This document shows, one piece after another, positions 17,348-34,740 of a DNA stretch of 48,136 bases (within the stretch, counting starts at the first letter, position 1; every line of letters begins with the position of its first letter). Location: IMG/VR virus record IMGVR_UViG_3300033977_000008, positions 1-48,136 of that record. One strand, written 5' to 3'. Below the pieces are notes generated by a model. That model saw only the letters and a program-made list of their open reading frames with translations. It was not told where the DNA came from and did no database searches. The translations under genes were made by a program, and so were the position numbers. Source of the DNA: a virus.

Positions 17348-17796
17348 TGGGTGACCTGCTCACACTGAAAAATCTCCAGATGGGCTTTGCTGGCCTTGGC
17401 GCTCTCACCAGTGCGGTGTCGGGCTTCGGAGAGTATGAAGCTGGTCAGGAAAAGAAAGCCGCCTATGATTATAATGCCGCAGTCAGCCTCCAGCGAATGC
17501 AAGAAGAAATGCAGACTTCGGAGACGCAATATGCTGTTCTGACCGGCAGGCAGGCATCTCGTTATGCTGCCGCTGGCGTTGATATTGCTTCCGGTTCGCC
17601 GCTTTTGGTAATGGCGCACACCGCAGCGCAAGGTGCGAAGGAACAGGAGAGCGAATACCTAGCAGGCACGGAAGAAGCCGCGTTGCAGCGCTACTACGGT
17701 AAGGTGGCGGCTTTCAGCGGAACCGTGGGCGGTATCAGCACGTTCCTTAGTGGGCTGGCGAAATCAGGTAGCCAGATGGCTACTATTATGGCGTGA
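17347..17796 (+). CDS. Internal virion protein (small, gp14-like position)
   Basis: TAATG coupling to the nozzle gene. Hydrophobic Gly/Ala-rich ends. RQASRYAAAGVDIASGSPLLV is a motif typical of podovirus internal/ejection proteins. Confidence 0.5.
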   Translation: MGDLLTLKNLQMGFAGLGALTSAVSGFGEYEAGQEKKAAYDYNAAVSLQRMQEEMQTSETQYAVLTGRQASRYAAAGVDIASGSPLLVMAHTAAQGAKEQESEYLAGTEEAALQRYYGKVAAFSGTVGGISTFLSGLAKSGSQMATIMA

Positions 17797-19658
17797 GGGG
17801 GAGTCCAATCCCTGAAATTCCAGTAGTTACAGCTCCTCGTTTAGTTCCTCCACCGGAGATCAGTCCGCAGATTGCCGGGCAGCCTGGGGAGACGCTTGCC
17901 CGCCTCGGACGAGAATTTGGTACTGTAGCTGATTATGGATTTCAGGTAGCATCCCGGATAAAGGACGCACAAGATGCCGTTTTGATCCAGGATGCTGAAA
18001 ACCGAATAGTCGCGGATATTCAAAAAGCTCGCATGGAGTTAGCAAACTGGAGTGATTTCACCCAAGCCGATCAACTTAAAGAACAAACTGCGAAAACGCT
18101 AAGGGATAAATACTCGGCGCAATTCGCCAACCATCCTCACTTATGGCGGTATCTTGAACCTTACCTCGGGAGGGAATTGAATCAGTACAACTACGATGTT
18201 GACGTTAGGAGAGCAGGCCTAATCTCAGATTTCGGCACGGCTGGTCTTGTTGAAACACTGAGGAATGACTCCTTGCTAATATCCAACGCGAGATCGGAAG
18301 CTGAAAAGCGGAAATACGAGCAACATAGCCTAGGCCAGATACAAGTATTCCAGGATAAGGGAATCATAAATCCGCTCAAAGCGGAAGAGATGCGGCAGGC
18401 ATTTTTCAAGACGAACGAAGAGGCGATACTAACGAAACTTACTCGAAGCCCGAATCCTGACGATGTAGCGAGAGGAATATCTCTTCTTCAGGATTCAAAC
18501 AACTTCCCACATATCCCAACCAGCGAGCAAGCGAAGTATTTAACCGCCGCTGAAAAACACCTGGAAGTCGTAACTGAGATGGCTGGGAAAGCGCAACGCG
18601 ACAGGGCGGAGAGCACTGCAACTCAAGCGCTTCAAATGAAGTTCCCAGACGATTATGATACGCAACTCGAAATGCTCGAAGGTGTTGGGGCAACGACGCC
18701 AGAAGCTCAAGCACAATACATTGAATGGCTAAAGAGTGTTGGCCTTGCCGATCAGAATGGCGTTAAAGATATGGCAGCGATTAAGCAGACAAGAGAAGCT
18801 ATTGACGCCATGCAAGCAGATCGGAAGAAGCGCGAGACAGAAGAAAGTGATAAAGCCGAGAAGCAGATCACGGACGCCATGGCGACGCATGATTTTGTGA
18901 AAGCGCGACAACTGCTCAAGCAAAGTCTTCCCATGTTGGTGAAAGGGAAAGCCGAAGAACTTGATAAGGCGATAGTGGCGCGCGCGAAAAGGACAGATGA
19001 TGATATTTCCAATCACGAGGATGCGGCAGAATATCTGAAAATCATCAAGATGATGGCCGATGATCCAGATGCCGCAGAGAGAGAAATTATCCAAACCCCG
19101 CATTTGAAAACTACAACGCGAGAGAGTTTGGTAAAGCGCCTTGAGACAGCGCAGGATAAAATTTTGAAAAGTGGCCTTGCTATGGCAGACGGCTATCTCC
19201 GCGAGCAGATTTCAGCGACGAAAGACCCGCTTCAATTGCCAGGACCGTTGCATCTTGCAAAAGCGCGGGATGCGCAAGTAGCCCTTGGCGAGTGGATTGA
19301 ACAGGAAAATGCGCGAAGGGCTACGGGCAGACAGAAAGCGTTAACGTCTCAGGAGATATACGAGCACGCAAAGGAAATGGTGCCTGCGTACTATGTGACG
19401 ACAGCGCAGGAGATACAGTACGAAGCGGAAATGAAGAAGCGGGCTTTGCAAGCGCAGAAACCTTACAACTACACTCCTGAGCAACTCAAGCATTGGGCCG
19501 ATCACTACGGGATTACTGTTGATGAACTAAAACGTAGAATGAAGCAGCCTACCGATCAAAGAACCAGTGGCGCCTACACCGAAAAGGAACTTAAAGATAT
19601 GGCTGCGGAGTGGGATATAAGTGTTGAGCAAGTAAAAGACTATTTGGGGATTAAATAA
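17793..19658 (+). CDS. Internal virion/ejection protein, helical, with two C-terminal HeH/SAP-like motifs
   Basis: 621 aa, highly charged and helical. Overlapping start and stop with neighbours. C-terminal repeats YTPEQLKHWADHYGITVDELKRRM and YTEKELKDMAAEWDISVEQVKDYL. Confidence 0.55.
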   Translation: MRGSPIPEIPVVTAPRLVPPPEISPQIAGQPGETLARLGREFGTVADYGFQVASRIKDAQDAVLIQDAENRIVADIQKARMELANWSDFTQADQLKEQTAKTLRDKYSAQFANHPHLWRYLEPYLGRELNQYNYDVDVRRAGLISDFGTAGLVETLRNDSLLISNARSEAEKRKYEQHSLGQIQVFQDKGIINPLKAEEMRQAFFKTNEEAILTKLTRSPNPDDVARGISLLQDSNNFPHIPTSEQAKYLTAAEKHLEVVTEMAGKAQRDRAESTATQALQMKFPDDYDTQLEMLEGVGATTPEAQAQYIEWLKSVGLADQNGVKDMAAIKQTREAIDAMQADRKKRETEESDKAEKQITDAMATHDFVKARQLLKQSLPMLVKGKAEELDKAIVARAKRTDDDISNHEDAAEYLKIIKMMADDPDAAEREIIQTPHLKTTTRESLVKRLETAQDKILKSGLAMADGYLREQISATKDPLQLPGPLHLAKARDAQVALGEWIEQENARRATGRQKALTSQEIYEHAKEMVPAYYVTTAQEIQYEAEMKKRALQAQKPYNYTPEQLKHWADHYGITVDELKRRMKQPTDQRTSGAYTEKELKDMAAEWDISVEQVKDYLGIK

Positions 19659-22600
19659 TGCCTATTGATCCTCAGCACGGTCCTGATCCTTTGGAGGGCT
19701 CAGCGGTTCAGTACGGACCGGACCCGTTTGAACAAATGCATCCTGAGCCTCCGCCTTTCCCGATTGACGATCATGTTCACGAGCAAATTAAAAAATTACC
19801 TCCTCAACAAGAAGTGAAAGCGAGAAGCGGATGGAATTCTGTTCTTTACCAACTGAGTCAGCCATATCTCGCAAGTGGCTATAGCGCCGCATCAGCCTTG
19901 AATCGTGGTATGGCGCACTTCGCGGATACTCTGGACAATGCGAGAAAATGGCTACAGGAAAGTATGGGCCATGTGACTTGGGGTCCCAAGACTGAGCCAC
20001 TTGTCCCAGAAGACTTCTTTGAAAAACTTGCCAAGGTTTATGAATTAAATGCGGATTATTGGAAGCAGCGTGCTGACCAAGTAGGTCCCTCTTTTCTTGA
20101 AGAATTGGTTGGTGAAGCGATAGGTGGCGCGGTGCCCGGGATAACGGAATTCACTGTAGATACAGCTTCGTACTTCACTATCCCAGGTATGGCTGGGTGG
20201 GAAAAAGCACAAAAGCACGGGGAATCGGGAATAGACCCGGTGATTACAGGATTAGTTGAAGCGGCTAAGGTGGGAACGCTGCAATATCTATTTCGGACGA
20301 TGGCACCGTTCAAAAGATATCTGCAAGCATCTGCGATGGGTTCTTTTTTTGGTGCTCAGGCAGTGGCGGAAGCTCCAAGTGGTCAAAGGCTCAGAGGAGG
20401 CGCTAAAGGTCTGGGTACCGGAATGCTTTTGGCCGGAATCAGCCAGCCTGGTGAAATTGGCGTGAGGGACATCTATCCTGAACTTGGCAGTGGAATTCCT
20501 AGAATATCTCAAGACTTGCTCGTCCCACAATTGCCTATGGCGGAAGGATTAAAACCTGCCATTAAGACAGCCGACCGGGTGACCACAGGGGAAGTGGGAG
20601 AAACACATCCTGATATTGGCCCTCCGACACGCGACGAAGAGCGTGGCTTCGTGACTCCGCAAGGCAAGTTCCTAACGCGCAAAGGTGCGGAGGAGTGGCT
20701 GGCTCAAAACAATCCTGAAGTTCACGAAGAATGGAAGAAAAGAGCTGGAGAGGGAGCGGAATTTCACTCCGAAGATTATAACCTAGCGCGTGAGACCGTG
20801 CAGGCTTCACGTCGGCCTTTGCCTTTAGGTGCAGCGTCTCGGCTTCCAATAGATAATCCTCCGGTATTTCGGCCTCATGTGGAGCCGACTGGAATTTGGG
20901 GCAGCATCGGCAGGATATTTCATTCGATGTATAAAGCCACGACAATAGACATCGTACCGGGTCTTGCTGATGTAGGAGTATCCAATAACGCAGTCCAACA
21001 TGCTCACGCAAGAGAGGCGGCACCAAGGATTGTAGACGACCTTCTATCGCGAGTCTTCCCTGAAGATTACAAAAAGCCCCAAGTCATGGCGAACTTTATC
21101 GACCTACTCAACAAGGATAATATTTTAGGGGGGCTTGACTCTTTTCTGTTGCGGGCATCTGAGGCAAGAGTCGAAGGGGATACTGCCACCGCCGAAAAAT
21201 GGGATACACTCGCAGAAGCAGTTAAACAAGCGCACGACATTTCCGCTTATGATACCGAAGTTCGCAAAGCAATGCGAAATGACAAGTTCATGCAGACCGT
21301 CCAGCGATGGCAAGATAATGTGTCACCTAAACTCGATCAACTTTATAACGAGATGAAGCAAGTAGACCCTTTTACGCAACGGGATTCTCGCGGGCGTTAT
21401 CTGGACAGCCGCATAAATCTTTTAACTGAAGAAAAGGCGACAAGGTGGGCGGAAGCAATGCTAGACCCTGACAAACCGACGCCCGAGCCTTCGGCGTCAT
21501 CTTATCGCAATCCTAACGTAAAGCGCGATCCGTATGATGTGATGGCAACCTTCACTGGGAAATATTCAACTGACGCGAAGGCTGTGCTTTCTGCCGTTGT
21601 GGGACATAGATGGAATGAAGTAACCAAGATACGTTTCTACAATGATCTTGTGGATAACGGTATAGGAATAGTGCCGGAGGCAAATGAAGCTCCTCCCGAA
21701 GGGTACACTCGCATGGCGTTTAGAATGCCTCATACTGCGAACACTGGTCGGACCAATATTATCGAACAGCCATTGTTCGTACCGCAAAATCTCGTTCGTG
21801 AGATACGCAGTGTGCTTCGTACAGACATGCCGTTGAAGGAAAATCTTGTAGGAAGGGTTTTGACCGGACTTCAATTGGCTCAATTGGCGGACTTGACGAC
21901 TCACACGAAAAATATCCAATCGGTTATTACACGTGCGCAGGGAGCAGGCGATGTCTGGACGGATGTCATCAGGAAAATTCCCGGCTTTGGTTCTGCCGAT
22001 ACAATATGGCGCATGGTCAAGACGACTCGTGAAGTTTTCCACGATACGCCAGAGATAAGAGCAGAAATCGAGCAAATGGCTCGCCGTGGTTTGGTGAGAC
22101 CGGCTTTCCCTGCTATAGGGATACAGAAAATAACGCGCGGTCAGCAAATCATCCACGAGGCGGACACTGCGGCGCGGATCATTATGAATCGGTTCTTTGA
22201 CAATTTGGCAGAACGGAAACTCGTTCTTGATACAGAAGAAAACCGGCGCAACTTTGTCAATCAGGTCGGCGAATATAATACGCGACTTCAAGGACCGATT
22301 ATGAGAGCAGCTAAGCAATCAGGGCTTTCACCTTTCATTGTTGCTGGCCGGAACTTTAATAGACAGGGAAGATGGGCGGTTACAGGTAATCCTGGCATTG
22401 AAGCTGCTAGTACGAATGCTGCCGTTCAAATGCGCGTCTTGAACCTTCTTGGAACGGCTGCTCTTTTCACTCTGCCGATGTTCCTCAATTATCTCACCAG
22501 CGGTAAGATGACAGGACGAGCGGGAACACCTATCGGGGCGTGGGATTTAGGTCTAGAACCTGATCCAAAGACAGGAAAACATAAAGTTATTGATCTTCTC

Positions 22601-23170
22601 AACTGGACTGGAGCGAGGCGTGGGATGCGTTCTATCGGCCTTGATGCTTTGATCCAAGGGTTGATGAACGGCGACCACATGAACGACATAGCGGGAAACG
22701 CTTTGCAGGATGCTGGCAATACCATTATCCATCCCTGGAATGGACCAGCCATCGCATTTGCTGAAAAGACTCTAACTGGCAGACAGCTTGATCTTCGTGG
22801 AATTATGGAAGTGGAAAAATTACCCGAAGGTGGCGGGCTTCAATATGTAGAGAACTTTCGGGCTGCACTGGAAAGTCAGAATCCGTTTGTGTATTCGATT
22901 GTTCGTCCTGCCTTTCAGGAACTAGGCTTGGATCAGAAACCGAAGCCTAGTTATCCAGAAGATGTGATTACGTCATTATTAAAATCTCCTGAAGCAGCGG
23001 TCGGCGCGCGAGATATAACACCGCCACCGACAGAAGGGGAACGGCTGAAACGTGAGGCAGAAATTAAGCGCGCAAGAATGCGGGAAAAACTCGAATACAA
23101 AATAGGACTTGACCGCAAGGCTCAAAAAAAGCGGTTTACGATTCTAAGACGAAGGGCAGAAGAAGACTGA
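19658..23170 (+). CDS. Large internal virion / DNA-ejection protein (gp16-like position)
   Basis: 1170 aa, the largest non-fibre ORF and third in the internal-protein series. TAATG coupling upstream and ATGA coupling downstream. No lytic transglycosylase motif seen. Confidence 0.55.
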   Translation: MPIDPQHGPDPLEGSAVQYGPDPFEQMHPEPPPFPIDDHVHEQIKKLPPQQEVKARSGWNSVLYQLSQPYLASGYSAASALNRGMAHFADTLDNARKWLQESMGHVTWGPKTEPLVPEDFFEKLAKVYELNADYWKQRADQVGPSFLEELVGEAIGGAVPGITEFTVDTASYFTIPGMAGWEKAQKHGESGIDPVITGLVEAAKVGTLQYLFRTMAPFKRYLQASAMGSFFGAQAVAEAPSGQRLRGGAKGLGTGMLLAGISQPGEIGVRDIYPELGSGIPRISQDLLVPQLPMAEGLKPAIKTADRVTTGEVGETHPDIGPPTRDEERGFVTPQGKFLTRKGAEEWLAQNNPEVHEEWKKRAGEGAEFHSEDYNLARETVQASRRPLPLGAASRLPIDNPPVFRPHVEPTGIWGSIGRIFHSMYKATTIDIVPGLADVGVSNNAVQHAHAREAAPRIVDDLLSRVFPEDYKKPQVMANFIDLLNKDNILGGLDSFLLRASEARVEGDTATAEKWDTLAEAVKQAHDISAYDTEVRKAMRNDKFMQTVQRWQDNVSPKLDQLYNEMKQVDPFTQRDSRGRYLDSRINLLTEEKATRWAEAMLDPDKPTPEPSASSYRNPNVKRDPYDVMATFTGKYSTDAKAVLSAVVGHRWNEVTKIRFYNDLVDNGIGIVPEANEAPPEGYTRMAFRMPHTANTGRTNIIEQPLFVPQNLVREIRSVLRTDMPLKENLVGRVLTGLQLAQLADLTTHTKNIQSVITRAQGAGDVWTDVIRKIPGFGSADTIWRMVKTTREVFHDTPEIRAEIEQMARRGLVRPAFPAIGIQKITRGQQIIHEADTAARIIMNRFFDNLAERKLVLDTEENRRNFVNQVGEYNTRLQGPIMRAAKQSGLSPFIVAGRNFNRQGRWAVTGNPGIEAASTNAAVQMRVLNLLGTAALFTLPMFLNYLTSGKMTGRAGTPIGAWDLGLEPDPKTGKHKVIDLLNWTGARRGMRSIGLDALIQGLMNGDHMNDIAGNALQDAGNTIIHPWNGPAIAFAEKTLTGRQLDLRGIMEVEKLPEGGGLQYVENFRAALESQNPFVYSIVRPAFQELGLDQKPKPSYPEDVITSLLKSPEAAVGARDITPPPTEGERLKREAEIKRARMREKLEYKIGLDRKAQKKRFTILRRRAEED
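23125..23131 (+). other. In-frame A AAA AAG heptamer (candidate -1 frameshift or A7 slippage site)
   Basis: Zero-frame codons are CAA AAA AAG. The -1 frame is open from 23131 through ATG 23170 of the ATP-grasp gene. Confidence 0.35.
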
Positions 23171-24423
23171 TGGCAGGCTACAAAAGCAAAAGCGTGTGTG
23201 TTTCCGATAATGGACTGTTCAGCGAACTGGCAAGAACGCTTTCGCGTTCATTTGGGCAAGTTTGGTACACATCGCCTTGGGTGTCGGCGTTTCCTTTAAG
23301 CGAGCATCTTGAAGTTGCGGAAGGCATGGTGGAAATTGACAGGATTGACGACATCCATGAAATCATAAACGACTGCGACCTGTTTGTTTTCCCTGATATT
23401 TACCAAGCTCCGATTCAGATATACCTCGCATCCATTGGCAAGCGTGTGTGGGGAGCACGCGAAGGCGATGAACTGGAAATCTACCGCAAGGATTCAAGGG
23501 CTCACTGCCATGAACTTGGCATTCCGCTACCAGAATATGAAGTGATTAAGGGTATGAACGCCGTGCGGAAGTACATTAAGAACCACGATGGAGAAAAGCT
23601 GTGGGTGAAAGGCAACAAGCCCAGAGGAGATTTTGAGACTTTCTGTGTGGAGGGCTACGACCTTGGTAAGAATCAATTAGATGATATTGAAACACGGCTC
23701 GGACCTAAAGCGGATCAGATGACTTACATTGTCGAGCAAAACCTGAAGGCCAGCATTGACCTTGCCATCGACACGCATTGTATCGACGGACAATATCCAG
23801 ATACAACAGTGCTTGGTACGGAAGAAAAGGGAGAGTGCTATGTTGGGGAAGTTGCTCCGTGGGCGGCAATGCCTAATGCACTGCGAGAGATTTACAGCAA
23901 ACTTTCACGCACTTTGAAACAATACGAGTACCGAAATTTTCTGTCACTTGAATCTCGGGCTTTCGCCAAACGCATTTACCTTGGTGATCCGTGTTGCCGT
24001 GCTGGATCACCACCACTCGAATTGCAATTGAATTGGATTACGAATCTAGCCGATATTTTGTGGGAAGGCGCTGAAGGGCATATGGTCAATCCAGTTTATG
24101 ACGGCAGATTCGGCGTCGAGCTTATCGTGCATTCGGATTGGGCCAATAAGCATCCACTGCTAGTGGAGTTCCCTGAGAAGTACCGTGACAAAATTAAGTT
24201 TCGCTATAATTCGGAGTTTGAGGGCAACACTTGGATTATGCCCCAGGGCGTAGGTCCAAGAATTGCGGCAATCGTGAGTCATGGAAACTCAATCGACGCT
24301 TGCATCGAAGAGTGCAAAGAGATAAGCTCGCAATTGAAAGGAACCTTAGTGGAATCATTCACGAGGAGCTTCCCCATCGTCATGGAAAAGATCGAAACGC
24401 TAAAGACGTGGGGACACTGGTAG
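23170..24423 (+). CDS. ATP-grasp fold ligase (PurD/RimK-like architecture)
   Basis: Rossmann-like N-terminus, then ...EKLWVKGNKPRGDFETFCVEG..., IVEQNL...DLAIDTHCIDGQY and LSLESRAF..RIYLGDPCCRAGSPPLE, which resembles the E..N.R.GdPe motif of ATP-grasp enzymes. Confidence 0.6.
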   Translation: MAGYKSKSVCVSDNGLFSELARTLSRSFGQVWYTSPWVSAFPLSEHLEVAEGMVEIDRIDDIHEIINDCDLFVFPDIYQAPIQIYLASIGKRVWGAREGDELEIYRKDSRAHCHELGIPLPEYEVIKGMNAVRKYIKNHDGEKLWVKGNKPRGDFETFCVEGYDLGKNQLDDIETRLGPKADQMTYIVEQNLKASIDLAIDTHCIDGQYPDTTVLGTEEKGECYVGEVAPWAAMPNALREIYSKLSRTLKQYEYRNFLSLESRAFAKRIYLGDPCCRAGSPPLELQLNWITNLADILWEGAEGHMVNPVYDGRFGVELIVHSDWANKHPLLVEFPEKYRDKIKFRYNSEFEGNTWIMPQGVGPRIAAIVSHGNSIDACIEECKEISSQLKGTLVESFTRSFPIVMEKIETLKTWGHW

Positions 24424-24432
24424 GGAGGATTT

Positions 24433-24987
24433 ATGAAACTCAAAGGATTGCTTCTGATTCTGGCGCTTGCCATTAGCGCTTCTGCTTTCGGAACCGGAAC
24501 TTGTACGGTTACAGATGTCACAAGCACTCAAAACGCCAACAGTCGCGTGCCTGATTCCTGGACCGTAGATGTGATAGTTAAATGTACGGCTGATGGGAGC
24601 GGAAGCATTCCGTCTGCCACTAGCATCCCGATGAGCGGATCAACTAGTTCTTCCGGTCTAATCAATACCTACAATGTGTTTGGGTATTATTTATATCAAG
24701 TTGGGAGAACGCCAGGGAACGTCACAGGCTCAAATACTAGCTGCTCCGCGACATGCCCAACTGCCAACTACAGCACAACCATTACAGACGTCCAAGGATT
24801 CGCTCTTGATCTTGGTCTACTATCCTCAAATGGCAGTGCAACAGCAGCGCAGATGAATGTGATAGCAAATTCCACTACGAATTATCCTGTAGTAAGGAGC
24901 GGCAATTTGGTGCTTGGTGTTACTGGCAACACGAGTTCCAATCCTAATGCAGTAATTACTTTCGACCTGATCTTCAAATCTCAATAG
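24433..24987 (+). CDS. Secreted-type S/T-rich protein (signal peptide), fibre-associated
   Basis: SD GGGAGGA. N-terminus [20 protein letters not shown] is a classical Sec signal with an ASA cleavage motif. Many N-x-S/T sequons. Confidence 0.55.
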
Positions 24988-24997
24988 TGAGACGAAC

Positions 24998-27900
24998 ATG
25001 AAAAAGTCACTCCGTTTTCTAATAGTCGTTCTCATATTAGCTAGTCGTTCATGGGCCATTCTGCCAGCGCCAACTGCAATTCCGAAGACGACGATTCCCA
25101 TTAGCGCCGCCTTTCAGCCTGCTGGGATTGTCATTGTAACAAACGGCGCGAATTCGTCTGATTGCGGCACAGGCTCCGGGACAACTTGGGTGGTATGCTT
25201 CTACACAGGCTCAGCGAACACTTGGAGTTCCGTAGCCCAGTCAGGCGTGAGCGGGGTGAGTTCGTTCAACGGGCGTACAGGCGCGGTTTCTCCAAGCACC
25301 AGCGATTATGCTCTTAGCCAGATCACGGCGACTATCAGTTCTCCATTGACCCTCAGCACGAATACACTATCCATTCCAGTTGCCACTTCAAGCGCAAGTG
25401 GATACCTAGCTTCAACTGACTGGTCTACGTTCAATGGTAAACAGGCCGCACTCTCAAGTGTCTCTGGGGTTAGCCATAGATGGATCAACTCATTTACGGC
25501 ACCGAATACTTTTGGACAAACACAACCAGCTTCAAGTGACCTGTCAGATTACGGATCAGTCTCTCCGTCGTCTCTGTTTGGGAGTGCCAATTCCTGTATC
25601 ACTCTAGGCTCGACCAATGTTTGTCTTGGAAACTCGATCAGTAGTGCCACCGGATTTAACTCCGCAACTGCTTCTGCAATAGCCGGAAGTCCAACTAACG
25701 GACAATACTGGGGCTACAACGGTACTTCGCAGGGTTGGTACACGCCTGCCGGCAGTGGCACCATTACTGGCGTAACGGCGGGCACCGGACTTTCAGGAGG
25801 AGGAACGAGCGGCAGCGTGACGCTATCCTTAGCTAATCCTGTTACTGAGGGAGCGGTAGTCAAAACCGCTGCTTACACTATTACCTCTACGGACCTAGGT
25901 GCGCTGATCGTGATGAATTGCTCTTCTACTTGCGCAGTTACGTTGCCAGGCACGCCCCCAGGTGCGCCCTGGTCAGTCGAGGTAGAGAGCATCGGATCAA
26001 CACTGGCAACCGTGAGTCTGAATGGCAACACTTGGAATGGCGGTAGTTCCGCACCAACGCTAAACAGCTACGATACGTTGGTTGTTTTCTCAAGCGGTTC
26101 TGCTTACTACGGGGTCGGCCCTTATCTCGCTGGAACGGGCTTAACATTCACGGCCGGGAGCGGTAATGGAACTTTCAGTATGACCAACACAGCGGCGACT
26201 GTGAATGGTCAAACCTGCACGTTGGGATCAAACTGCAACGTCAACAGTGGTGCGGCACAATACAGTGTTGCAATCAATGAGGGAGCGGGCGCGGCACTAG
26301 CAGGAGTAGGCCCCGGAACTGTAACGGGAGTACCACTCATTTCACAAGCAAGCGCGGCTCCAGTTTACGGCGCACTCAATCTCGGCGGTGGCTCAAATAT
26401 CATCACAGGAAATCTGCCTGTCGGCAACCTGAATAACGGCACGAGCGCGAGTAGTTCAACATTCTGGCGGGGAGACGGAACCTGGGCTACGCCGTCAGGA
26501 TCGGGCAACGTCAGTACTTCCGGCGTTATCACTACGGGCAGTTTGGCAGAGTGGGCATCAGGTACGACGATTGAGACCGGTAATCTGTCGGCAGACGTGA
26601 CGACAAGTGGCTCGATGGCAGCCACAGTAGTAGCTCTCAGAGGAATTTCCCTCCCTACGTTAGCGTCCAGCACCGGGTATTTATTCGATAATAATGGTTC
26701 CCTTGCTCTTCAGACACCAAGCAACTATACGGTCCAGATTGCAGGAACTGGACTTACCGCAGGCGATACGGTCAATTTCAACGCTTCAACCCCAGCACCG
26801 CAAAGCAATTACGCCAATGTGACTTTCCAGACCAGCAAAAGTAGCAATACCGATAGTGTCAGCGCAGAAATGCCCTACTCTACCACATCAGCCTACGGGG
26901 TTGCGGAACTGGGGTCTCTTTGCACAGGAGTTCAGTATTCGCAAGGGCTGAGCAATGGCAATAATAATTGTGCGAATACTCCTGATATTGGACTGACTCA
27001 GTATGGAGTTTTGGAAGGGGGTGGTTCGGGAAGCGGTCCGGTTGCTTCTGCTGACTTCACAATCGGATCAACAGCCCACACTCTGAAATCAGGTGCGTCA
27101 GGACTTGTTGATTTGAGCGCGGCTACTGGGACTGCGGCTTTTAAGGTCCCATCCAACTCTTCTAACACTGCCTCGGCAGCAGGCGCTTTAGTGTTCGATA
27201 CCACAAACAAAGATTATCACGGCTATATTAACAGCGCGGATTCACGCCTTGCGGCCTATGCCACGACTTTGACACCAACTGCTGGATACGGAGCGACATG
27301 GGTTGCTGCTGGTAGCGCTTGGACGTTAGGTTCAAGCGTCTTCCCGACAGTAACTGGGGGAACGTGTAGCAGTCAGTGGGTAACAGGCATCAGTTCGACT
27401 GCTGTGCCAACTTGCACAAGTTTGACGCTGGACCTCGTGGGAAGTGCAGCAGCGTCAAAAACATTTGCGGATGGCAATTATACCTTAGCTTTCAATTCGG
27501 CGACCACCACAGGTTCACAGACGGCAGTTTCTTTTGGCGAAACCTCGGCAGCAAGCGGGTCCGGTGACATTGAAGTTGGAATCTCCACATCTAGCGGCTC
27601 CACGGCAATCCCACTGAAAGTTACTCAATCGGCGGCAGCATCCGGGACAAATACCCCGAATGTTGTGTCAGTAAACGCGGCCATCGGCGGCGGCCCAGCA
27701 AGTGTCACAAGCGCAGGAAATACAGGCGGGGGATTTACAGGGAGTTTTGCAGCGGCTGGCTCTGCCGGGGGAAGTACATCTGGGAATGGAGGAAATGGTG
27801 GTAGTGGAACACTTACGCTTGGTGGGGCTGGGGGTGGTGCCACGTCGGGAACAGGAGGTACTGGAGGTTCATCCACATTAGTCCTTGCGGGCGCTGGTGG

Positions 27901-28882
27901 CTCGCCTACGGCTGGCGCTGGAGGTACGGCTGGTGCGGGAACATTTACTTGTGGCGGGGCGGGTGGAACAGGTGCAAGTTCAAACAATGCTGGAGCGGCT
28001 GGCGGTTCTTGTACGATTACGGCAGGCGCGGGAGGGAATAGTGCGGGAACTGCCAATAATGCCAGCGGGGGGAACATTGTACTGACACCAGGAGCGGCTG
28101 GCACAGGGGGCTCAGGCACAGCGGGCTCAGCCGGAGTCGTTCAAGTTACTACGCTTGGTGCGGGCGTAGCGCATCTAAACGCCTCGGGCAATCTAACGAG
28201 TTCATCTGTAATTTCATCCGACGTGAATAGCACTGTGATGATCGACGGAGCAAACACCACTACGACTGCCGGTAAGATTCCCTTCTCGACTACTACAGCG
28301 GGCAGTTATACTCCTGGTGATTTCATAGACTCGAAAGAATTTCCCGCGGCGACCTGCAACAGTACGACCGGCGGCAGCGGTTGGAATCTACCAGCATCAA
28401 ACGGATTTACGGTTGGGACCTGCCCGGAAATATCGGGTGGAAACCACAACGTGGGCTATGTATCTGCCACTCAATCCACATCCGCCGAGACACAGATTTT
28501 TCACATTCCCACGAACTGGGACTCGACGGCGGCGATGTACGCAAGCCTCAGCTTCGACCAGGGCAACTACACAACAAGTGGTTCCTCGATCATCTTGAGC
28601 ATCGCTGTGGCCTGCATCCCATCGTCGGGCGCCACCAGCAATCCGTCCTACCAGAGCGCGCAGGCATTCCCGACCGCCACGACAACCACGACGGCCTACA
28701 CGTACTTTTCGGCGAGCGCTGAGTACCTTACGCTGAACTCCACCAGCCTCACGAACTGCTACGCCGGGGGAGACGCGTTCTTCAAGATCAGCCGTGGATC
28801 GAGCGACACGGCAGCAGTGACCCCGAACATCTTCACCATGACGCTTGGCGTCCCACTCCTAAATACGGGGCAGGCACAATGA
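24998..28882 (+). CDS. Tail fibre protein (1294 aa) with an N-terminal Sec-type signal peptide and a Gly-rich solenoid region
   Basis: Tail-fibre motifs [21 protein letters not shown] and [14 protein letters not shown]-rich. GGxGG repeats over about 27700..28130. N-terminus [20 protein letters not shown]. Confidence 0.7.
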
Positions 28883-30471
28883 GACGGGCATTCCTAGTTC
28901 TGGTTCTGATACTTTGGCCTTCTACTAAAGAAGCACAGCAGATTTATCCCGCGGGCACGGCCTTCCAGGAGAACTTCGGCAATAATGGGGTTAACCCACA
29001 GCCTTGCTGGTCAGGCGGAACGGGTTCCGCAGCTCAGTGTATTCAACAGTGGTATGTAAGTTCGGGAAGTGGTCAAAGTATTGTCACGGCACCGAGCGGG
29101 TGGAGCGGCAACGCCCTAGAACTTGCTTCAGCAACTACTGCGAACAAGCTCATAACCGCCGGAACCATGCCGCTAGTGCCGCTGAATAGTGGATTTACTT
29201 TCACGATGACTGCGAATTTATCAGCCTACCCAAGTTCCTACACAGAGTTGGCTAGATTTCGTTCTTACTGGACATCGGGTAACATCGAGGGGCAGATCCA
29301 GGCATATACAGGCGGGTTTGAATTCCCTAACGGTACTACCTGTACCGCGTCCGCGAATGCGGGCCATACGCTTAAGGAAACTAGCAACGGAACTACCATG
29401 TACGGCTACATTGATGGTACGCAATGCGGTAGTTCCTGGGCCGATCCTGGATATCCTATTGGGTCTATTGAGGTTGGAGGGGGCAACGGTTACAACACCT
29501 TTATTCAAACCATCACACTGAATGGCACAACAGTAACCGGTCAGTGGCCTCCGTCGTTCTATGTCAACTTCAACGGGCAGTACGGAAATTCCGTGACTGC
29601 CTCCACCTTGCAATCCGGCACACCCTGCAACTTCAACGCGCAAAACGCAAACGCGACGGGCGATTGGGCGGTTAGCACATTGACGGGTATCTCATATAGC
29701 TACGTGCAAGGTGGTCAACCTTTCCCCAGTAATCTCAGCGCCTGCGGCGGGTCATACACCGGCAACGTAAACGTCGCCCTCGACATGAACGTCACGACCA
29801 CATCGGGAGCGGAAGGCTACTGGGGAGAGACATTCTACACTTCATACCCCAACTTGAGCTGCGGGGTTTACATACGAATAAATCCCACTGGGACACTCGG
29901 CGCGTCTGGGAATATAGATACGCTACTATTGGGCGCGAGTAGCGACGAGTATAATTCGCAGTATTACACAGGTAGCGGCACAAATTTCGTCGTCCATTTT
30001 GAGAACCAGCAGGGTGGAGGCAGCGCTCCGGCAACCAGTACCATTACGACGAACATATATTACTGGGAGACGTTTGATGTAACTGGGTCGGGTGGAACCA
30101 ACTATCTGTGGCTTTTCAACATCAACTCTAGCGGCCAAGTCACATCTTTAGTAAGTCAACTTACGGAGGCAGGCACCCATGAAGCCTTCGGCGGTGGAAC
30201 ATTTCTATTCAGGATCGGCAAGTTGGGTTCAGGAACGATCTCCAACGCCGCCGATGTGATCTACTCGAACGTGATCGTTTCGGCTGCTATGACCGCTGGC
30301 GGACCATTGATGCCTCCGGCAGGCGCGGCCTGCCCAGTGATAATTGGCCGACTATGTCAGCAAGAAAGCGACTTTGCAGAGGGCCGAGGGCTGCTGCCCA
30401 TCTTCCGCGTTGGCCTCTTAGACCCGCCGGTCAGGAGGCCACACACGATCACAGTGAATTGGCCGCAATGA
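28879..30471 (+). CDS. Fibre/receptor-binding-module protein with a signal peptide
   Basis: ATGA coupling to the fibre gene. N-terminus [21 protein letters not shown]. Beta-rich 530-aa body with a jelly-roll/lectin-like feel only. Confidence 0.45.
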
Positions 30472-30510
30472 ACGCGAAAAGACTACTCCAGTAGTTCGCT
30501 CAGATTTACA

Positions 30511-30759
30511 ATGGATGAATCGCGCCCAATCGCCAGAACCGCAAGGCAGAGGCGGCAATTTGCTCACAAGCTCACAGGCCGAGAATTAGATGTGATAAAG
30601 ATGCTGCTAGACGATATGCACCCAAAAGAGATTGCAACCGAACTCGGCGTAAGCTATCAAACTGTGAAGAACCATCTGAGGAATGTTCGTCAAGTCTTAG
30701 GTATTAGAACTACGCTAGGCTTAGGCGCGTACTTGTTGCGTGAGGGCGTCATAAGATAA
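30511..30759 (+). CDS. LuxR/GerE-type HTH transcription regulator, stand-alone DNA-binding domain (82 aa)
   Basis: LTGRELDVIKMLLDDMHPKEIATELGVSYQTVKNHLRNVRQVLG matches the LuxR C-terminal HTH signature. No receiver or ligand domain. Confidence 0.8.
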   Translation: MDESRPIARTARQRRQFAHKLTGRELDVIKMLLDDMHPKEIATELGVSYQTVKNHLRNVRQVLGIRTTLGLGAYLLREGVIR

Positions 30760-30768
30760 GGAGCAACT

Positions 30769-32988
30769 ATGAAAATGTCAAAAGCGACTGCTGCAATAAT
30801 CCTCTTCCTAATCTCAGGCAGTACCCTGTTTGGCACAGTCACGAGTACGAATAACAGCGTGACGTATACCTGCTCCAATTCGACTGGGCCATTCTCTTTT
30901 AGCTTCCCAGCCTACGATGCGGGCAGTATCCAAGTCATTGAAACGGTTGGTACTACGTCCACAACGATTCCTTCCAGTCAGTACACGATTACTATAGTCA
31001 ACCATTCCTTCGCAAACGGTGGGAGCATTTCACTTTCGACTGCTTGTGCTACCGGTAATTTGCTGACAATTCAGCGCGTGACTGAGGAAACGCAACTCAG
31101 CAGTTTTACTGAATATATGCCCGCGCTATACAAAACATTTGAGTACGGCCTTGACAAGCTCACAGAGGAAATCCAAGACCTTCCTAGCAGCGTAATTCCT
31201 ACTCTTCTTTCTACTTCTCTTGCCCTCAAGCCCGCCGTGGCGGATGCGGTGCAATACGTTTCAAAAAATGGGAGCGATTCAAACGATGGCTTCTCCGAGG
31301 GGAGCGCCGTGGCCGATATTGGGACTGCCTATGGTAATCTGCCGTCGTGCACGGTTGCAAACGACCTCAACCCTTTTACAAACCCTCCGTCAACGTACAA
31401 TTCCTACACGTTCTCTCATTGTGGCAAGATTTATGTTGCTGAGGGAACGTATACGGTTTCTTCCCAAATAACTATCTCGTCTCCGTTCGTCACTGTTGAG
31501 GGCCAAGGGCAGGGTGCGGTTATAAACTGGATCGGTACAGCCGGAACCGCAATTAAGTGGACCTCCAGCCCATTCGCGCATGAATTTATAAATGCCGGTG
31601 GTCTATTCAACGTGCGGATTGATGGGTACAACGGGTCAGCCGGGACGTGGGGGCTCAACACTTATAACCTCTCCAGCTTCCATGCAGCGCGGGTTACTAT
31701 CGCCAACTTTAGCGGCTCCGGTTCAGGCTGTTGGAATAACACGATGGATTCTGGGTGGAATGAGAAATACGACGTGGAAATTACCACCGACAACTGCACA
31801 ACTCATTGGCAAGTTCAGAGGCTTTCGACTGGGAGCGGAAGTACTTACGGATACGGTAGATTCGAGGTTAAAAGCATCATTTACGCAGGCCAAACAGGCT
31901 TCGTGCTCGATGGAGGCACGCAAGGTAGCCTCTCGTTTGATAACTCCTTTTTTCATTATGTCGCCAACGAGGTTTCAAACACAGCGAACGACACCGTGAT
32001 GTTGCTTCGCAACGGAGCAAGCATGATTGATAACGTGTGCCAGATACATATGGAGGCTCCTTACGGGATCGGCACTGGAAATGAGATCAACATATCTAGT
32101 AACAGCAGCTTCGCTTGTGCCGGCGAACTCGACCAAGCCTCCCCAAGTTCAAACCTCCTATCAGGCGGCTTTAATGTCTTTAATCCGTTGCAGGCCTGGT
32201 TGCAATTCCGCGGCGACCGCCAAGTATCACTGCTTGACAGTGACTTTGAACTCAGCGGCTCAGGCACGTACCCGGTGGGCCTTCCCCCGGTGGGTTGGAC
32301 ACCAAGCAATTCACCTACATTGGCGTATGAAACGAGCACGGCTTACAACGGCAAAACTCGTTCCCTCAAGATCACAGGCTCAACGCAATACGAAGGGGTT
32401 TTCAGCCAGAACTTTCCGGTTGCCGCTGGCGATACTTATTCAATCCAATGCGCTGCCAAATCGGATGGAACCGGGACAGCCGATTGCAACGTTCAGTTCA
32501 AAAATGAGAGTGGAAGTAACTTAGCTTCAGCAAGCGCCACAACTATGTCCACTAGTTGGACAGCCTTGAGCGCCTCGGCAACAGCTCCGGCAAACGCAAC
32601 CTATGGAACCGTTGTCCTTCAGAACGATACATCGGCTGGTGCCGGTGCTACATGGTTCGACGACATTGTGGTGCGCAAGGTTGACTTTTCTGTGCTTGTA
32701 GCAAGTGGAAGACAGGCTAGCCTTTCTGGTACGGGAGCCTGTGCGACGATTACAACTCAAAAGGGTGGATCGTGGGCGGGATCATTCGTTTGTACCGGAA
32801 CAACCGGAACGAGCACGATAACGGTTACGGCGGGTCCAACCGCGCCAAACGGTTGGGTACTCACGGCCTACGACATGAATGATGGCGTGCATGGCGCGCA
32901 AACCGCCTACACGACGACTACGGCCTCCGCTAGCTTTTCCAGCGTGACGCAAAACGCCGTTTTGACCTTCACGCTAACGGCTTTCTAA
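30769..32988 (+). CDS. Tailspike/depolymerase-like protein: signal peptide, beta-helix-like core, C-terminal CBM-like jelly roll
   Basis: SD AAGGAG. N-terminus MKMSKATAAIILFLISGSTLFG. VQYVSKNGSDSNDG... resembles pectate-lyase-fold spikes. The C-terminal DSDFE...WT...Y.G..SLKI...W.DD.V pattern is CBM4/9-like. Confidence 0.5.
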   Translation: MKMSKATAAIILFLISGSTLFGTVTSTNNSVTYTCSNSTGPFSFSFPAYDAGSIQVIETVGTTSTTIPSSQYTITIVNHSFANGGSISLSTACATGNLLTIQRVTEETQLSSFTEYMPALYKTFEYGLDKLTEEIQDLPSSVIPTLLSTSLALKPAVADAVQYVSKNGSDSNDGFSEGSAVADIGTAYGNLPSCTVANDLNPFTNPPSTYNSYTFSHCGKIYVAEGTYTVSSQITISSPFVTVEGQGQGAVINWIGTAGTAIKWTSSPFAHEFINAGGLFNVRIDGYNGSAGTWGLNTYNLSSFHAARVTIANFSGSGSGCWNNTMDSGWNEKYDVEITTDNCTTHWQVQRLSTGSGSTYGYGRFEVKSIIYAGQTGFVLDGGTQGSLSFDNSFFHYVANEVSNTANDTVMLLRNGASMIDNVCQIHMEAPYGIGTGNEINISSNSSFACAGELDQASPSSNLLSGGFNVFNPLQAWLQFRGDRQVSLLDSDFELSGSGTYPVGLPPVGWTPSNSPTLAYETSTAYNGKTRSLKITGSTQYEGVFSQNFPVAAGDTYSIQCAAKSDGTGTADCNVQFKNESGSNLASASATTMSTSWTALSASATAPANATYGTVVLQNDTSAGAGATWFDDIVVRKVDFSVLVASGRQASLSGTGACATITTQKGGSWAGSFVCTGTTGTSTITVTAGPTAPNGWVLTAYDMNDGVHGAQTAYTTTTASASFSSVTQNAVLTFTLTAF

Positions 32989-33028: not shown

Positions 33029-33373
33029 ATGCCTGAAAAACGCCGGTGGATTGACTGGCACATGACGCTGGGAGAAGTGATTCTCTGTATTCCAGTACTT
33101 TTGTTGCTCATTGGCGGCATCTACGGATGGCTCAAAAACAACTGGACTACAGAACAGTGGCACAAAAAGGTTGAAAGCCAGCTTCTCCAAGTGCAGCAAG
33201 AACTTTCCACTCATGGTAGTGCTCTAAAAGACATCAAGGAATCTAATGCTCAACTTTGGTTTGTTGTAAAGACCTGGGCGGAGAACCGAAAAATCGTGCC
33301 CGTTCCTATCGGAAATGGAAACGAAAAACCACTTGACAACCAGGATGCTGTGGGAGTAAAACAGCCGCAATGA
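33029..33373 (+). CDS. Single-TM protein with a periplasmic coiled coil (holin or i-spanin-like lysis candidate)
   Basis: SD GAGGAAA. TM segment VILCIPVLLLLIGGIYGWL, then helix QLLQVQQELSTHGSALKDIKE. First gene after the fibre block. Confidence 0.4.
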   Translation: MPEKRRWIDWHMTLGEVILCIPVLLLLIGGIYGWLKNNWTTEQWHKKVESQLLQVQQELSTHGSALKDIKESNAQLWFVVKTWAENRKIVPVPIGNGNEKPLDNQDAVGVKQPQ

Positions 33374-33404
33374 GTGACCATTGCGATCCTTCTCGAGGCT
33401 CTCC

Positions 33405-33430
33405 GGGGCGAGGATTCGCACCCTCGCCCC
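33405..33430 (+). terminator. Perfect 9-bp GC-rich hairpin after ORF 33029..33373
   Basis: GGGGCGAGG-attcgcac-CCTCGCCCC. The T-run after it is weak (tctcggtt), so its role as an intrinsic terminator is uncertain. Confidence 0.4.
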
Positions 33431-33449
33431 TCTCGGTTAGAGGTGAGAA

Positions 33450-34250
33450 GTGAATATCATAGATGCGTTCTGGCTCTGGCGTAAATGGGCCAAGGTCTCG
33501 CAGAAATTAAACCAGGAGGAGAAATCAGACATGACAAGCAGTTGGAAAACAAGTCTCGTAGGTGTTCTCGGCGGAATTCTTTATCTGATCGTTCAACAGA
33601 TGAGCCAAGGCGTAAAACTCCGCGATGCAGTGCTTGCGGCAGCTATGGCTTTGCTCGGGATTCTCGCCAAAGACTTCAATGTAACGGGCGGCACAACGAA
33701 ACTCAGTATCTTTTTCGCCATCATTTTGACTTTGAGTGTTACGCATGCCCAAGCACAGACGCCACCGCCAAGCCCCGTTCCCACTCCCACACAATCTACA
33801 TTGAATTTCAACGTTGGGAGTTCGATCTTCGGTGTAGGCTCACAAGCAGCCGCAGATGTGATTTTGCAAATCAATCCTGGCATCAAGAACTCGGTCCTGA
33901 AGAATCTCAGCTTTATGACAGACTCCCTGTTAAATAGCGGCGCTAACTTCCAGTATTATGGCGGGGGAGTCTTGTTTCCGATTCCCAAGAATCCGTTTGC
34001 CAACACCGCGTTGAGTCCGCTGGGGTTCTATGCCAGAGGCACAGTCGGAATAGACAGACTTGCGCCTCCAACTGGTCCCGGAAGCCAGCATATCGCCTTG
34101 ATGGTTGGGGGCGGAGTAAACTGGAAACTCGCAAATGGAGTTCAGTTCAACATCGTCGAAGTTGACCTGCTCCGCGCGCCAGGTGCGCCTTGGGGAGCAA
34201 ACGCCGTTGCCGTGTCGGGCGGAATCTCATACTTCTTCGGGCAACATTAA
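33450..34250 (+). CDS. Fusion-like protein: two-TM holin-like N-terminus, internal signal-like segment, OMP-type beta-barrel domain
   Basis: The better start may be ATG 33531 (SD AGGAGGAG). SWKTSLVGVLGGILYLIV...AAAMALLGILAKDFNVTGG is holin-like. LSIFFAIILTLSVTHAQA/Q and a Pro-rich linker follow, then alternating beta pattern ending ISYFFGQH. Confidence 0.45.
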   Translation: MNIIDAFWLWRKWAKVSQKLNQEEKSDMTSSWKTSLVGVLGGILYLIVQQMSQGVKLRDAVLAAAMALLGILAKDFNVTGGTTKLSIFFAIILTLSVTHAQAQTPPPSPVPTPTQSTLNFNVGSSIFGVGSQAAADVILQINPGIKNSVLKNLSFMTDSLLNSGANFQYYGGGVLFPIPKNPFANTALSPLGFYARGTVGIDRLAPPTGPGSQHIALMVGGGVNWKLANGVQFNIVEVDLLRAPGAPWGANAVAVSGGISYFFGQH

Positions 34251-34356
34251 GGAATTCGGATATCAGCATCTCCGCTAATATGCTGGGCGTGGCCTATCGG
34301 CATAATTGCAATTGCGTGGATAGACCACAAAGTGTTTGGGAAGAAACAGCAGTACA

Positions 34357-34740
34357 ATGAGTAATCTGCTGCTGAAGCGTACAACTTTCTTGCCGAATTG
34401 TACTCAGGGAGAGTTGTATCTCGAAGGAACATTTAATTGCTATACATTAGAGCCCGCGAAACTTGACCCCCCTATAAAACCTCGGTGTATCCCGCCTGGC
34501 ACGTACCAGTTCGAGATTGCATACTCTCCGAAGCACGCACGGAATCTACCGATATTGGAGTCTGTCCCTGGCTTCGATGAGATTGAGATTCACGTTGGGA
34601 ATTTCCCGCAGGATACGCTTGGGTGCATTCTTGTCGGAAACCAGCAAGGCACCGCCGCAGTCTACGGCTCAGGCGCTGCATTTGAAGCACTGTTTCCTCA
34701 ACTGACGCCGGGAACAATAGAAATACTTGAATCTTCGTAA
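34357..34740 (+). CDS. DUF5675-like protein with a YkuD-type H...GC signature; candidate cell-wall hydrolase/endolysin
   Basis: TQGELYLEG..CYTLEP...IPPGTYQF...LESVPGFDEIEIHVGNFPQDTLGCILVG. The H-x(n)-(S/T)-x-GC-(I/V) pattern is as in L,D-transpeptidase-fold enzymes. Confidence 0.45.
   Translation: MSNLLLKRTTFLPNCTQGELYLEGTFNCYTLEPAKLDPPIKPRCIPPGTYQFEIAYSPKHARNLPILESVPGFDEIEIHVGNFPQDTLGCILVGNQQGTAAVYGSGAAFEALFPQLTPGTIEILESS

Follow-up and report, generated by a model that had tools for sequence, protein, structure and literature searches.

Sec-type signal peptides on the fibre and spike proteins of an uncultured podovirus suggest a periplasmic step in fibre maturation

We analyzed a window of 48,136 nucleotides (nt) that covers positions 1 to 48,136 of the IMG/VR virus record IMGVR_UViG_3300033977_000008, a sequence derived from ENA assembly ERZ27251359. 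Bases 1–127 of the window are identical to bases 48010–48136 (127 bp), indicating a complete circular or terminally redundant assembly, and the window represents the complete genome of a podovirus of ~48,009 bp. Six proteins of its structural module, named here by the start positions of their open reading frames (ORFs 13534, 14255, 24433, 24998, 28879, and 30769), carry at the N-terminus a basic n-region, a hydrophobic h-region, and a small-residue c-region; among them are a tail fibre (ORF 24998) and a tailspike (ORF 30769). These N-terminal segments are probably genuine, cleavable signals for the Sec pathway and signal peptidase I (SPase I), in which case the fibres would mature in the periplasm and dock on the particle at or after lysis; we put the probability of this reading at about 0.55. 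Textbook morphogenesis of tailed phages is entirely cytoplasmic, and the view of an initial annotation of this DNA, that Sec-type leaders are unexpected on the fibre and spike proteins of a tailed phage, is supported. Full-text literature searches found no published account of Sec signals on tailed-phage fibres, signal peptides being described there only for lysis proteins (endolysins, spanins). One paper even took missing signal peptides as evidence that a fibre-like protein came from a phage and not from a bacterium (PMC6199706).

The anatomy of the six N-termini confirmed the annotation's claim that all the large proteins of the fibre block (24433–32988), as well as ORFs 13534 and 14255 upstream, start in the Sec-type manner. 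The n-regions read MKLK, MKKSLR, MRR, MKMSK, and MKFR in five proteins and form an Arg-rich stretch of 27 amino acids (aa) in ORF 13534. The h-region is 9–13 residues long in the same five proteins and 18 residues long in ORF 13534, which is borderline for a type I signal, and its maximum Kyte–Doolittle value in a 10-residue window is 2.35 for ORF 14255 (taken from the 14219 start) and 2.9–3.3 for the other four proteins with short h-regions. The predicted junctions, with a slash at the cleavage position, are ASA/F (24433), SWA/I (24998), KEA/Q (28879), LFG/T (30769), LGS/Q (14255), and GAA/T (13534). The leaders thus show the features of Sec/SPase I signals, namely a positive n-region, an h-region of ~7–15 residues, and small residues at −3 and −1, with KEA/Q in ORF 28879 as an atypical junction. 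With their short h-regions and conserved A-x-A, ORFs 14255, 24433, 24998, 28879, and 30769 do not have the character of type II signal-anchors. Two other signal classes were considered and rejected. No lipobox of the form [LVI][ASTVI][GAS]C, as a lipoprotein (SPase II) signal would have, occurs at the end of any h-region, and the first mature Cys of ORF 24433 lies at +6 (GTGTC); as for a Tat signal, the RR pair is present only in ORF 28879 (MRRAF, at the extreme N-terminus and with the rest of the motif missing), and the RGR/RGAR of ORF 13534 is non-consensus.

The translation starts that place these segments at the N-terminus appear sound. Strong Shine–Dalgarno sites lie 5' of ORFs 13534, 24433, and 30769 (AAGGAG), and GAGGTG lies 5' of ORF 14255, whose start is at 14255 and not at the upstream ATG at 14219. 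ORFs 24998 and 28879 contain no in-frame ATG, GTG, or TTG within their first ~60 codons, and the alternative starts in the remaining ORFs either lie within the leader itself or would cost the protein conserved mature residues, so that no usable in-frame start lies downstream of the hydrophobic segments. Nor do related phages lack these segments: the leaders are kept in the close relative L004 and in other syntenic relatives. L004 retains every leader, with substitutions that keep the hydrophobicity and with mature parts that are 92–94% identical; in the case of ORF 24433, identity is 61% over the leader and 94% over the mature part. Signal peptides usually evolve in this way, diverging faster than the mature part while their hydrophobicity is kept. 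In our ORF surveys, signal peptides were called with a simple home-made heuristic, which scored 3 of 309 large ORFs (1%) in control viral loci as signal-peptide-like, and the leaders of this genome are far beyond chance. Among the remaining ~40 genes, no such N-terminus was found, apart from those of lysis candidates of the transmembrane (TM) type, and the capsid, portal, adaptor, nozzle, and internal proteins are leaderless.

In the tailspike, ORF 30769, a leader has been placed in front of a known virion domain. Positions 2–130 of the "tail protein" profile phrog_1640 match aa 23–157 of ORF 30769 (E 3.7e-11); in other words, the anchor domain, which binds the particle, starts at residue 23 instead of residue 2 and would be N-terminal only after cleavage. 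When ORF 30769 aa 1–175 was searched with phmmer against 1.84 billion cluster representatives (50% identity), 1139 matches were obtained at E<1e-3, and the leaders were counted in the best 150 of these N-domain representatives, of which 146 could be aligned. A leader was present in 112 of the 146, and the other 34 were leaderless, starting with M-TV/SV. The 112 leaders have a median length of 20 aa and a net n-region charge of +1 or +2 in 104 cases; at the junction, −3 is A in 82, −1 is A in 91 and G in 18, and +1 is T in 103. A profile of the family matched residues 2–125 of the Dpo31 tailspike (PDB 28lx/28mg/8ck1; E 6.6e-19), and residue 2 of Dpo31 (TVPTND…) aligns to profile position 21, the first position after the leader. 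Cleavage at the conserved A-x-A would therefore give exactly the N-terminus of the leaderless spikes, a kind of spike whose place in the virion is proven, and no other argument speaks as strongly for a cleaved signal over a membrane anchor.

The same boundary was seen in cultured phages. A tblastn search with the leader-bearing family representative P0075 against 50,697 GenBank phage records matched 60 records, corresponding to tail fibres and tailspikes of Pelagibacter, Cobetia, Klebsiella, Burkholderia, Ralstonia, and epsilon15-like Salmonella phages. Among the matches listed (40 of the 60 records), the alignments start at query aa 21–25, except for four Manatee Spring records that start at aa 14, one of which was inspected and is leaderless; all the relatives from cultured phages that were checked are leaderless as well. 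For ORF 30769 itself, aa 1–150 had no tblastn match among GenBank phages, and the full-length sequence had only 3 relatives in an index of 5.8 billion proteins. A beta-helix enzyme is probable in its distal part, since a paralogue in L004 carries PF12708 and the representative P0029 has a weak match to PF13229 (Beta_helix). In a neighbour-joining tree of the anchor family, the leader state changed at least ~8–11 times, and leaderless and leader-bearing sequences pair at distances as small as 0.18. From these sequences, the leader appears to be a widespread and evolutionarily labile trait, and its repeated gain and loss fits fibres that are a detachable last assembly step. As a separate observation, the enzyme module of ORF 30769 (from aa ~161) recurs at 52–86% identity in P0002 (contig IMGVR_UViG_3300035643_000034) and P0003, where it directly follows a signal peptide and the anchor is missing, suggesting that modules have been shuffled between anchored and free exported forms.

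Leader-bearing and leaderless members of the anchor family also differ in their cysteines. The Cys35/Cys93 pair of the anchor domain occurs in 96 of the 112 leader-bearing representatives (86%) but in only 2 of the 34 leaderless ones (6%; Fisher 5e-18). Over the whole mature proteins, Cys density is 1.82 versus 0.70 per 100 aa (2.6-fold; Mann–Whitney 7e-12), an even number of Cys is found in 79% versus 50%, and charged residues make up 8.4% versus 14.8%. Three leaderless sequences that are nested among leader-bearing members (P0034, P0081, and P0114) have lost one Cys of the pair, and the leaderless sequences that keep it are P0095 and P0144 (probably 5'-truncated). In the present genome, the 18 Cys of ORF 24998 form 9 tight pairs with alternating short and long gaps (permutation P ~1e-4), and all 18 are kept in its L004 homologue; ORF 30769 has 12 Cys in 6 pairs (P = 0.03), ORF 28879 has 9, and each of the small proteins (ORF 14255 and the mature parts of ORFs 13534 and 24433) has 4. 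Exported bacterial proteins show a bias toward even cysteine numbers, and even, paired cysteines are typical of proteins oxidized in the periplasm. By sequence, then, the leader-bearing proteins look like disulfide-bonded exported proteins. The initial annotation had also described these proteins as rich in S/T and in N-x-S/T; the first part holds, with 21–36% S+T versus 4–20% elsewhere, whereas the second does not, as the N-x-S/T counts equal those of composition-preserving shuffles in all six proteins. The hint of N-glycosylation was accordingly rejected, the N-x-S/T richness reflecting composition.

The five other leader-bearing proteins had no matches in Pfam, PHROG, NCBIfam, or PDB sequence searches, and the same was true of ORF 23170, the gene directly 5' of the fibre block. 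The tail-fibre motifs that had been noted in ORF 24998 were borne out by tblastn, which confirmed viral stretches in the FWRGDGTW region (485) and in the second motif region (505). Its shaft motif blocks are (F/L)xRGDGTWxxP and NGRTGAV, and ORFs in two viral loci (L101 and L120), whose similarity to ORF 24998 begins at aa ~25, have an N-terminal signal peptide as well. For ORF 28879, an AlphaFold2 model (pLDDT 68) was compared by Foldseek and resembled folds of lectins, carbohydrate-binding modules (CBM), and polysaccharide lyases (PL7), with TM-scores of 0.2–0.26 that speak for the fold class only; judged from this model, the protein probably binds carbohydrate. Its homologues P0156 (…CLLQA/QQTYPTGT) and P0158 (…SHAFA/QQNYPNGT) have canonical signal peptides with the same junction, in the pattern A/QQxYP. 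The last ~48 residues of ORF 28879 (window 30300–30471) have very low model confidence, and its counterpart in L004 has 17 fewer aa and 2 fewer Cys, suggesting that the C-terminus is variable or that the reading frame differs between the phages. A distant homologue of ORF 24433 in the syntenic podovirus L098 has a canonical signal peptide ending in …SSLWA/AGTCIVSDVSSTQ, which gives a junction pattern of A/xGTC; a single-sequence AlphaFold model of ORF 24433 reached a pLDDT of 38 and gave no usable fold. No homologues of ORF 14255 were found beyond a positional equivalent in L091, from a close relative.

In ORF 13534, the leader is followed by the conserved fibre motif TQISLTTQVQGILPGTNGGT. Homologues occur as two tandem genes each in L091 and in the unrelated virus L090, all with a leader, and in both viruses the leader is directly followed by QINLTTQVQGILPxANGGTG, the junction being /QINLTTQVQGILP; tblastn found no match to ORF 13534 in GenBank phages. 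The N-tail that precedes the hydrophobic segment (MRLLSFRDARGRFWY…, window 13534–13614) is conserved in the unrelated virus L090 (3001–3090, MRFFDARGNR…), and this conservation suggests that the N-tail has a function in the cytoplasm and that this one protein spans the membrane.

Leaders of this kind recur in the receptor-binding protein (RBP) blocks of other phages. Four syntenic podoviruses (L095, L096, L097, and L098) each have 2–3 leader-bearing genes in this block, beside leaderless internal-virion genes; the 49-kb contig of L096, for example, encodes a nozzle, internal proteins, an ATP-grasp-like protein, a leader-bearing spike of 1868 aa, a small TM protein, and two more leader-bearing proteins. 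Among 79 IMG/VR loci with the FWRGDGTW motif of ORF 24998, 18 fibre ORFs have a classical signal at their N-terminus (for example, …AFA/QTS or …ASA/QIN). In the loci with a signal-peptide fibre, 30 of 92 large ORFs were predicted to have a signal peptide, in contiguous runs, as opposed to 3 of 309 in the loci without one, and a second motif set gave 5 leader-bearing sequences among 51 complete N-termini. As judged from these sequences, the trait is block-wide within each phage. One signal-peptide-bearing fibre follows a tape-measure gene and a baseplate hub, and another follows a large terminase, suggesting that the trait is not confined to podoviruses. A scan of metagenome-assembled genomes (MAGs) with the family profile found only four loci: a prophage-like region of a "delta proteobacterium" MAG, in which a leader-bearing spike directly follows an internal-virion-like protein, leaderless loci in Bacteroidales and Nitrospinales, and a truncated locus in Methylococcaceae.

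If the leaders act as export signals, the whole receptor-binding set (ORFs 30769, 24998, 28879, 24433, and 14255, and probably 13534) would cross the inner membrane. The positive-inside rule places the bulk of each protein outside this membrane, and the short h-regions together with the conserved A-x-A suggest that SPase I would cut the leader off at A-x-A-type sites. The Cys-rich, low-charge, S/T-rich proteins would then fold in the periplasm with disulfide bonds, consistent with the oxidative folding to which the cysteine signature points, while the leaderless capsid, portal, adaptor, nozzle, and internal proteins would assemble in the cytoplasm. Particles and fibres would stay apart until the holin opened the inner membrane or lysis set in, and the freed N-terminal anchor of the spike would then dock on the tail as the last assembly step. 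We regard this as the most economical model; a speculative side benefit would be the masking or destruction of receptors in the infected cell. It is from the features described above that we infer actual export, cleavage, disulfide formation, incorporation into virions, and the time of docking.

Several points weigh against this model. The support for export and cleavage comes from sequence only, and the statistics were computed over family representatives that are phylogenetically non-independent. A meeting of the components only at lysis would dilute them and seems costly, and to our knowledge it has no precedent in tailed phages. The lysis genes are unassigned, and the membrane lesion could be a large holin hole or a pinhole. 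The Cys pairs could also be oxidized after release, in which case export would be unneeded. At the level of single proteins, the Lys at −3 of ORF 28879 is non-canonical, and ORF 13534, with its hydrophobic segment of 18 residues and conserved basic N-tail, is more like a signal-anchor; the latter may be an exception, a membrane-anchored component.

The proteins might instead be exported without becoming part of the virion, either as free periplasmic or secreted depolymerases that loosen the capsule or extracellular polymeric substances (EPS) to let progeny out, or as blockers that mask or destroy receptors and so prevent superinfection and the sticking of progeny to debris. Signal peptides and the cysteine signature would suit any exported protein, ORF 28879 resembles a lectin/CBM/lyase fold, and the enzyme module of ORF 30769 also exists fused directly to a signal peptide without the anchor (P0002 and P0003). 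We nevertheless regard this explanation as unlikely, because ORF 30769 retains the particle-binding N-domain that is canonical for tailspikes of solved structure and of cultured phages and lies at the usual position of a podovirus RBP gene, ORF 24998 has classical fibre-shaft motifs, and the complete genome offers no fibre or spike without a leader to fill the receptor-binding role. The virion-anchor domain of ORF 30769 and the lack of other receptor-binding proteins also disfavour display on the host surface, which the initial annotation had proposed, and a difference in host cell biology, another of its proposals, is not required for the explanation.

Its remaining proposal, that of uncleaved anchors in the inner membrane, would make the leaders type II signal-anchors that hold the fibres as an assembly platform or until lysis. 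Such tethers could explain the 18-aa hydrophobic stretch of ORF 13534, whose conserved basic cytoplasmic N-tail is shared with the unrelated L090, as well as the poor −3 residue of ORF 28879. For the set as a whole they are disfavoured and quite improbable: five of the six h-regions, at 9–13 residues, are too short for a stable TM helix, the A-x-A at the junction is strongly conserved (A at −3 in 82/112, A/G at −1 in 109/112), and the junction is followed without a gap by the anchor domain, the mature end coinciding with the N-terminus of leaderless homologues, which need only a free (M)TV. The positive n-region would, moreover, still put the bulk of the protein in the periplasm, so that the compartment problem would persist. 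That problem would disappear if the leaders were real but idle in productive infection, with Sec bypassed or blocked late, or with dual localization in which only the cytoplasmic fraction is assembled, and the frequent gain and loss of leaders suggests that both states are viable. Idle leaders, however, would give no account of the selection for A-x-A, for a positive n-region, and for even, paired Cys specific to leader-bearing proteins, and the domain that docks on the tail would be left with an uncleaved hydrophobic leader attached directly to it; we consider their chances slim. Finally, miscalled starts or chance hydrophobic N-termini have little in their favour beyond the general risk of miscalling starts. 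This artefact reading is barely credible and has already been refuted by the absence of alternative starts, the Shine–Dalgarno sites 5' of the leaders, the conservation of leaders across 112 protein clusters and several syntenic genomes, and the 1% background rate.

Periplasmic maturation followed by late docking can be compared with what is known of other phages. The leaderless form of the phrog_1640 anchor domain is represented by Dpo31 of Cobetia phage Carin1 (PDB 8ck1/28lx), the tail fibre of HTVC010P, the tailspikes of epsilon15-like/SPN1S Salmonella phages, and gp18 of BcepC6B. Like these, ORF 30769 combines a homologous domain (aa 23–157) with a probable beta-helix enzyme and is encoded after the internal virion genes, in a genome built on the same kind of backbone (T7-type portal PF12236, GP7 capsid PF20911, and nozzle phrog_376). 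Unlike the cultured and solved members that were checked, which start with (M)TV/SV, it has a Sec signal of ~20 aa and an added Cys pair in the domain, and its remaining part is Cys-paired and poor in charge. In the filamentous phages (Ff/Inovirus), pIII, pVIII, and other coat proteins are virion proteins with Sec-type signal peptides that are processed by signal peptidase, and pIII is disulfide-bonded in the periplasm before assembly. These phages use the export machinery of the host (PMC4823517). Their virions, however, are extruded through the envelope without lysis and without a cytoplasmic capsid, whereas in the lytic-type podovirus described here two compartments would have to meet. Late proteins of tailed phages that use the host Sec system and signal peptidases are also known, for example, signal-peptide and signal-arrest-release endolysins, the T4 antiholin RI, and o-spanin lipoproteins (PMC8385771, PMC8951688, PMC9144972). 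Those are lysis factors, whereas the leader-bearing proteins here are homologues of fibres and spikes. Morons of the lambda lom/bor type are signal-peptide genes located among the late or tail genes, and Lom and Bor are outer-membrane or lipoproteins that have no relation to fibres and are expressed from the prophage; in the present case, by contrast, the exported proteins are themselves fibre or spike homologues, and no integrase was noticed in the genome. The tailspikes of P22 (gp9) and the long tail fibres of T4 attach spontaneously to fibreless particles in vitro, and this docking on finished particles outside the cell supports the last step proposed here. In P22 and T4, however, both partners are cytoplasmic and meet before lysis, whereas the fibres in our model would be periplasmic.

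The trait is found in at least 112 protein clusters (50% identity) of a single anchor family and in ~10–25% of the sampled IMG/VR fibre loci, in both podovirus-type and tape-measure-bearing phages. That tail fibres and tailspikes can carry an export step is well supported at the sequence level. We suggest, tentatively and at somewhat less than even odds, that a sizeable fraction of uncultured tailed phages assembles in two compartments: all RBPs would be Sec-exported, processed, and disulfide-bonded in the periplasm, and would join particles built in the cytoplasm only once the holin has breached the inner membrane or after lysis. From the repeated gain and loss of leaders, cytoplasmic and periplasmic maturation of fibres would be interchangeable strategies, and the periplasmic route would be picked where Cys-stabilized fibres are needed. 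If this is true, the completion of virions in a large group of environmental phages depends on the host Sec system, signal peptidase, and Dsb, which would be new points of host dependency and resistance, and fibres would pre-exist in the periplasm of the infected cell, where they could mask or destroy receptors. Genes of this kind would be misfiled by annotation pipelines and virus–host classifiers in which a signal peptide counts as a non-viral feature, and recombinant depolymerases or receptor-binding proteins of this type would need periplasmic, oxidizing expression.

Table 1. Features of the podovirus genome, with coordinates in the 48,136-nt window
Feature	Coordinates	Strand	Remarks
Terminase	3347–5080	+	
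T7-type portal	6266–8143	+	PF12236
GP7-type major capsid	10144–11193	+	PF20911
Adaptor	12286–13227	+	phrog_394
Fibre-like protein, 237 aa	13534–14247	+	Between adaptor and nozzle genes; 27-aa Arg-rich n-region; hydrophobic aa 28–45 (nt 13615–13668), GAA/TQ
S/T-rich protein (36% S+T), 160 aa	14255–14737	+	Leader MKFRSVILALLSTTLLNLGS/Q, aa 1–20 (nt 14255–14314); 4 Cys
Nozzle	14756–17347	+	phrog_376
Internal virion proteins	17347–23170	+	
ATP-grasp-like cytoplasmic protein, 417 aa, leaderless, 10 Cys	23170–24423	+	Directly 5' of leader-bearing fibre block
Function-unassigned protein, 184 aa	24433–24987	+	Leader aa 1–18 (nt 24433–24486), /FGTGTC; mature part 4 Cys
Tail fibre, 1294 aa	24998–28882	+	Leader aa 1–20 (nt 24998–25057), /ILPAP; 18 Cys; two fibre motifs
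All-beta protein, 530 aa, two ConA-like/LamG-type jelly-roll domains	28879–30471	+	Leader aa 1–19 (nt 28879–28935), /QQIYP
LuxR/GerE-type (sigma-70 region-4-like) helix-turn-helix protein, 82 aa	30511–30759	+	PF00196, E 6.6e-12
Tailspike leader, aa 1–22, MKMSKATAAIILFLISGSTLFG/TVTST	30769–30834	+	AAGGAG Shine–Dalgarno; kept in L004 and in 112/146 family representatives
Tailspike particle-binding (anchor) N-domain, aa 23 to ~157, conserved Cys35–Cys93 pair	30835–31239	+	phrog_1640, Dpo31 homology
Tailspike distal part: probable beta-helix enzyme and C-terminal binding domain; 10 Cys in 5 close pairs	31240–32988	+	
Probable lysis region (context): 114-aa, 266-aa, and DUF5675 proteins	33029–34740	+	From topology only

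Every protein-coding gene of the genome lies on the + strand (Table 1), and the fibre block is followed by putative lysis genes and then by an ERF recombinase and other early-type genes. The nozzle is only ~30% identical to those of the nearest cultured phages (HTVC010P-like pelagiphages, Pseudomonas podoviruses, and others), and the sole close uncultured relative found was IMGVR_UViG_3300035643_000004, with 86–92% amino-acid identity. Homologues of ORF 23170 occupy the same position in L096, L098, and L095, and the L096 copy has a weak match to PF01071 (GARS_A). A tblastn search matched ORF 23170 to a "phosphoribosylaminoimidazole carboxylase" of the Thermocrinis GBS virus; the distant homologue in Thermocrinis/Aquificae hot-spring viruses is annotated as PurK-like. 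An obligatory tie between ORF 23170 and leader-bearing fibres was rejected, since the homologue in the Thermocrinis GBS virus is located elsewhere and the fibres of that virus are leaderless. The only leaderless gene inside the fibre block is ORF 30511, which adjoins the tailspike gene on its 5' side and may encode a late regulator.

The lysis region encodes one protein of 114 aa with a single N-in TM segment and a coiled-coil tail, another of 266 aa with several TM segments and a beta-rich C-terminus, and a DUF5675 protein; no family matches were obtained for these proteins except PF18925, and their topology is what points to putative roles in lysis. The 266-aa protein (33450–34250), for which no family matches were found, has 2 or 3 N-terminal TM segments, the last of which resembles an internal signal peptide (…LSIFFAIILTLSVTHAQA/QTPPPSP), followed by a Pro-rich linker and a beta-rich C-terminus that ends in YFFGQH and recalls an outer-membrane barrel; the protein could be a fusion of a holin with an outer-membrane protein or an unusual spanin-like lysis protein.

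A domain of ~65 aa is repeated in the adaptor, in the nozzle, and in a 256-aa protein encoded after the capsid gene (11208–11978). It is matched by phrog_38233/phrog_21413 in the adaptor and the 256-aa protein, and a similar-sized domain in the nozzle is matched by Pfam E1_FCCH; the repeated domain may be a shared surface or decoration module. An 89-aa protein encoded between the terminase region and the portal (6000–6269) has an uncharged hydrophobic N-terminus (MGVTALLATLAVSAAGTIGTGIY…) that is not signal-peptide-like and an Ala/Pro/Gln-rich tail. Genes for tRNA-His(GTG) and tRNA-Asp(GTC) lie at 937–1090 on the − strand, opposite to all the protein-coding genes and beside the genome junction.

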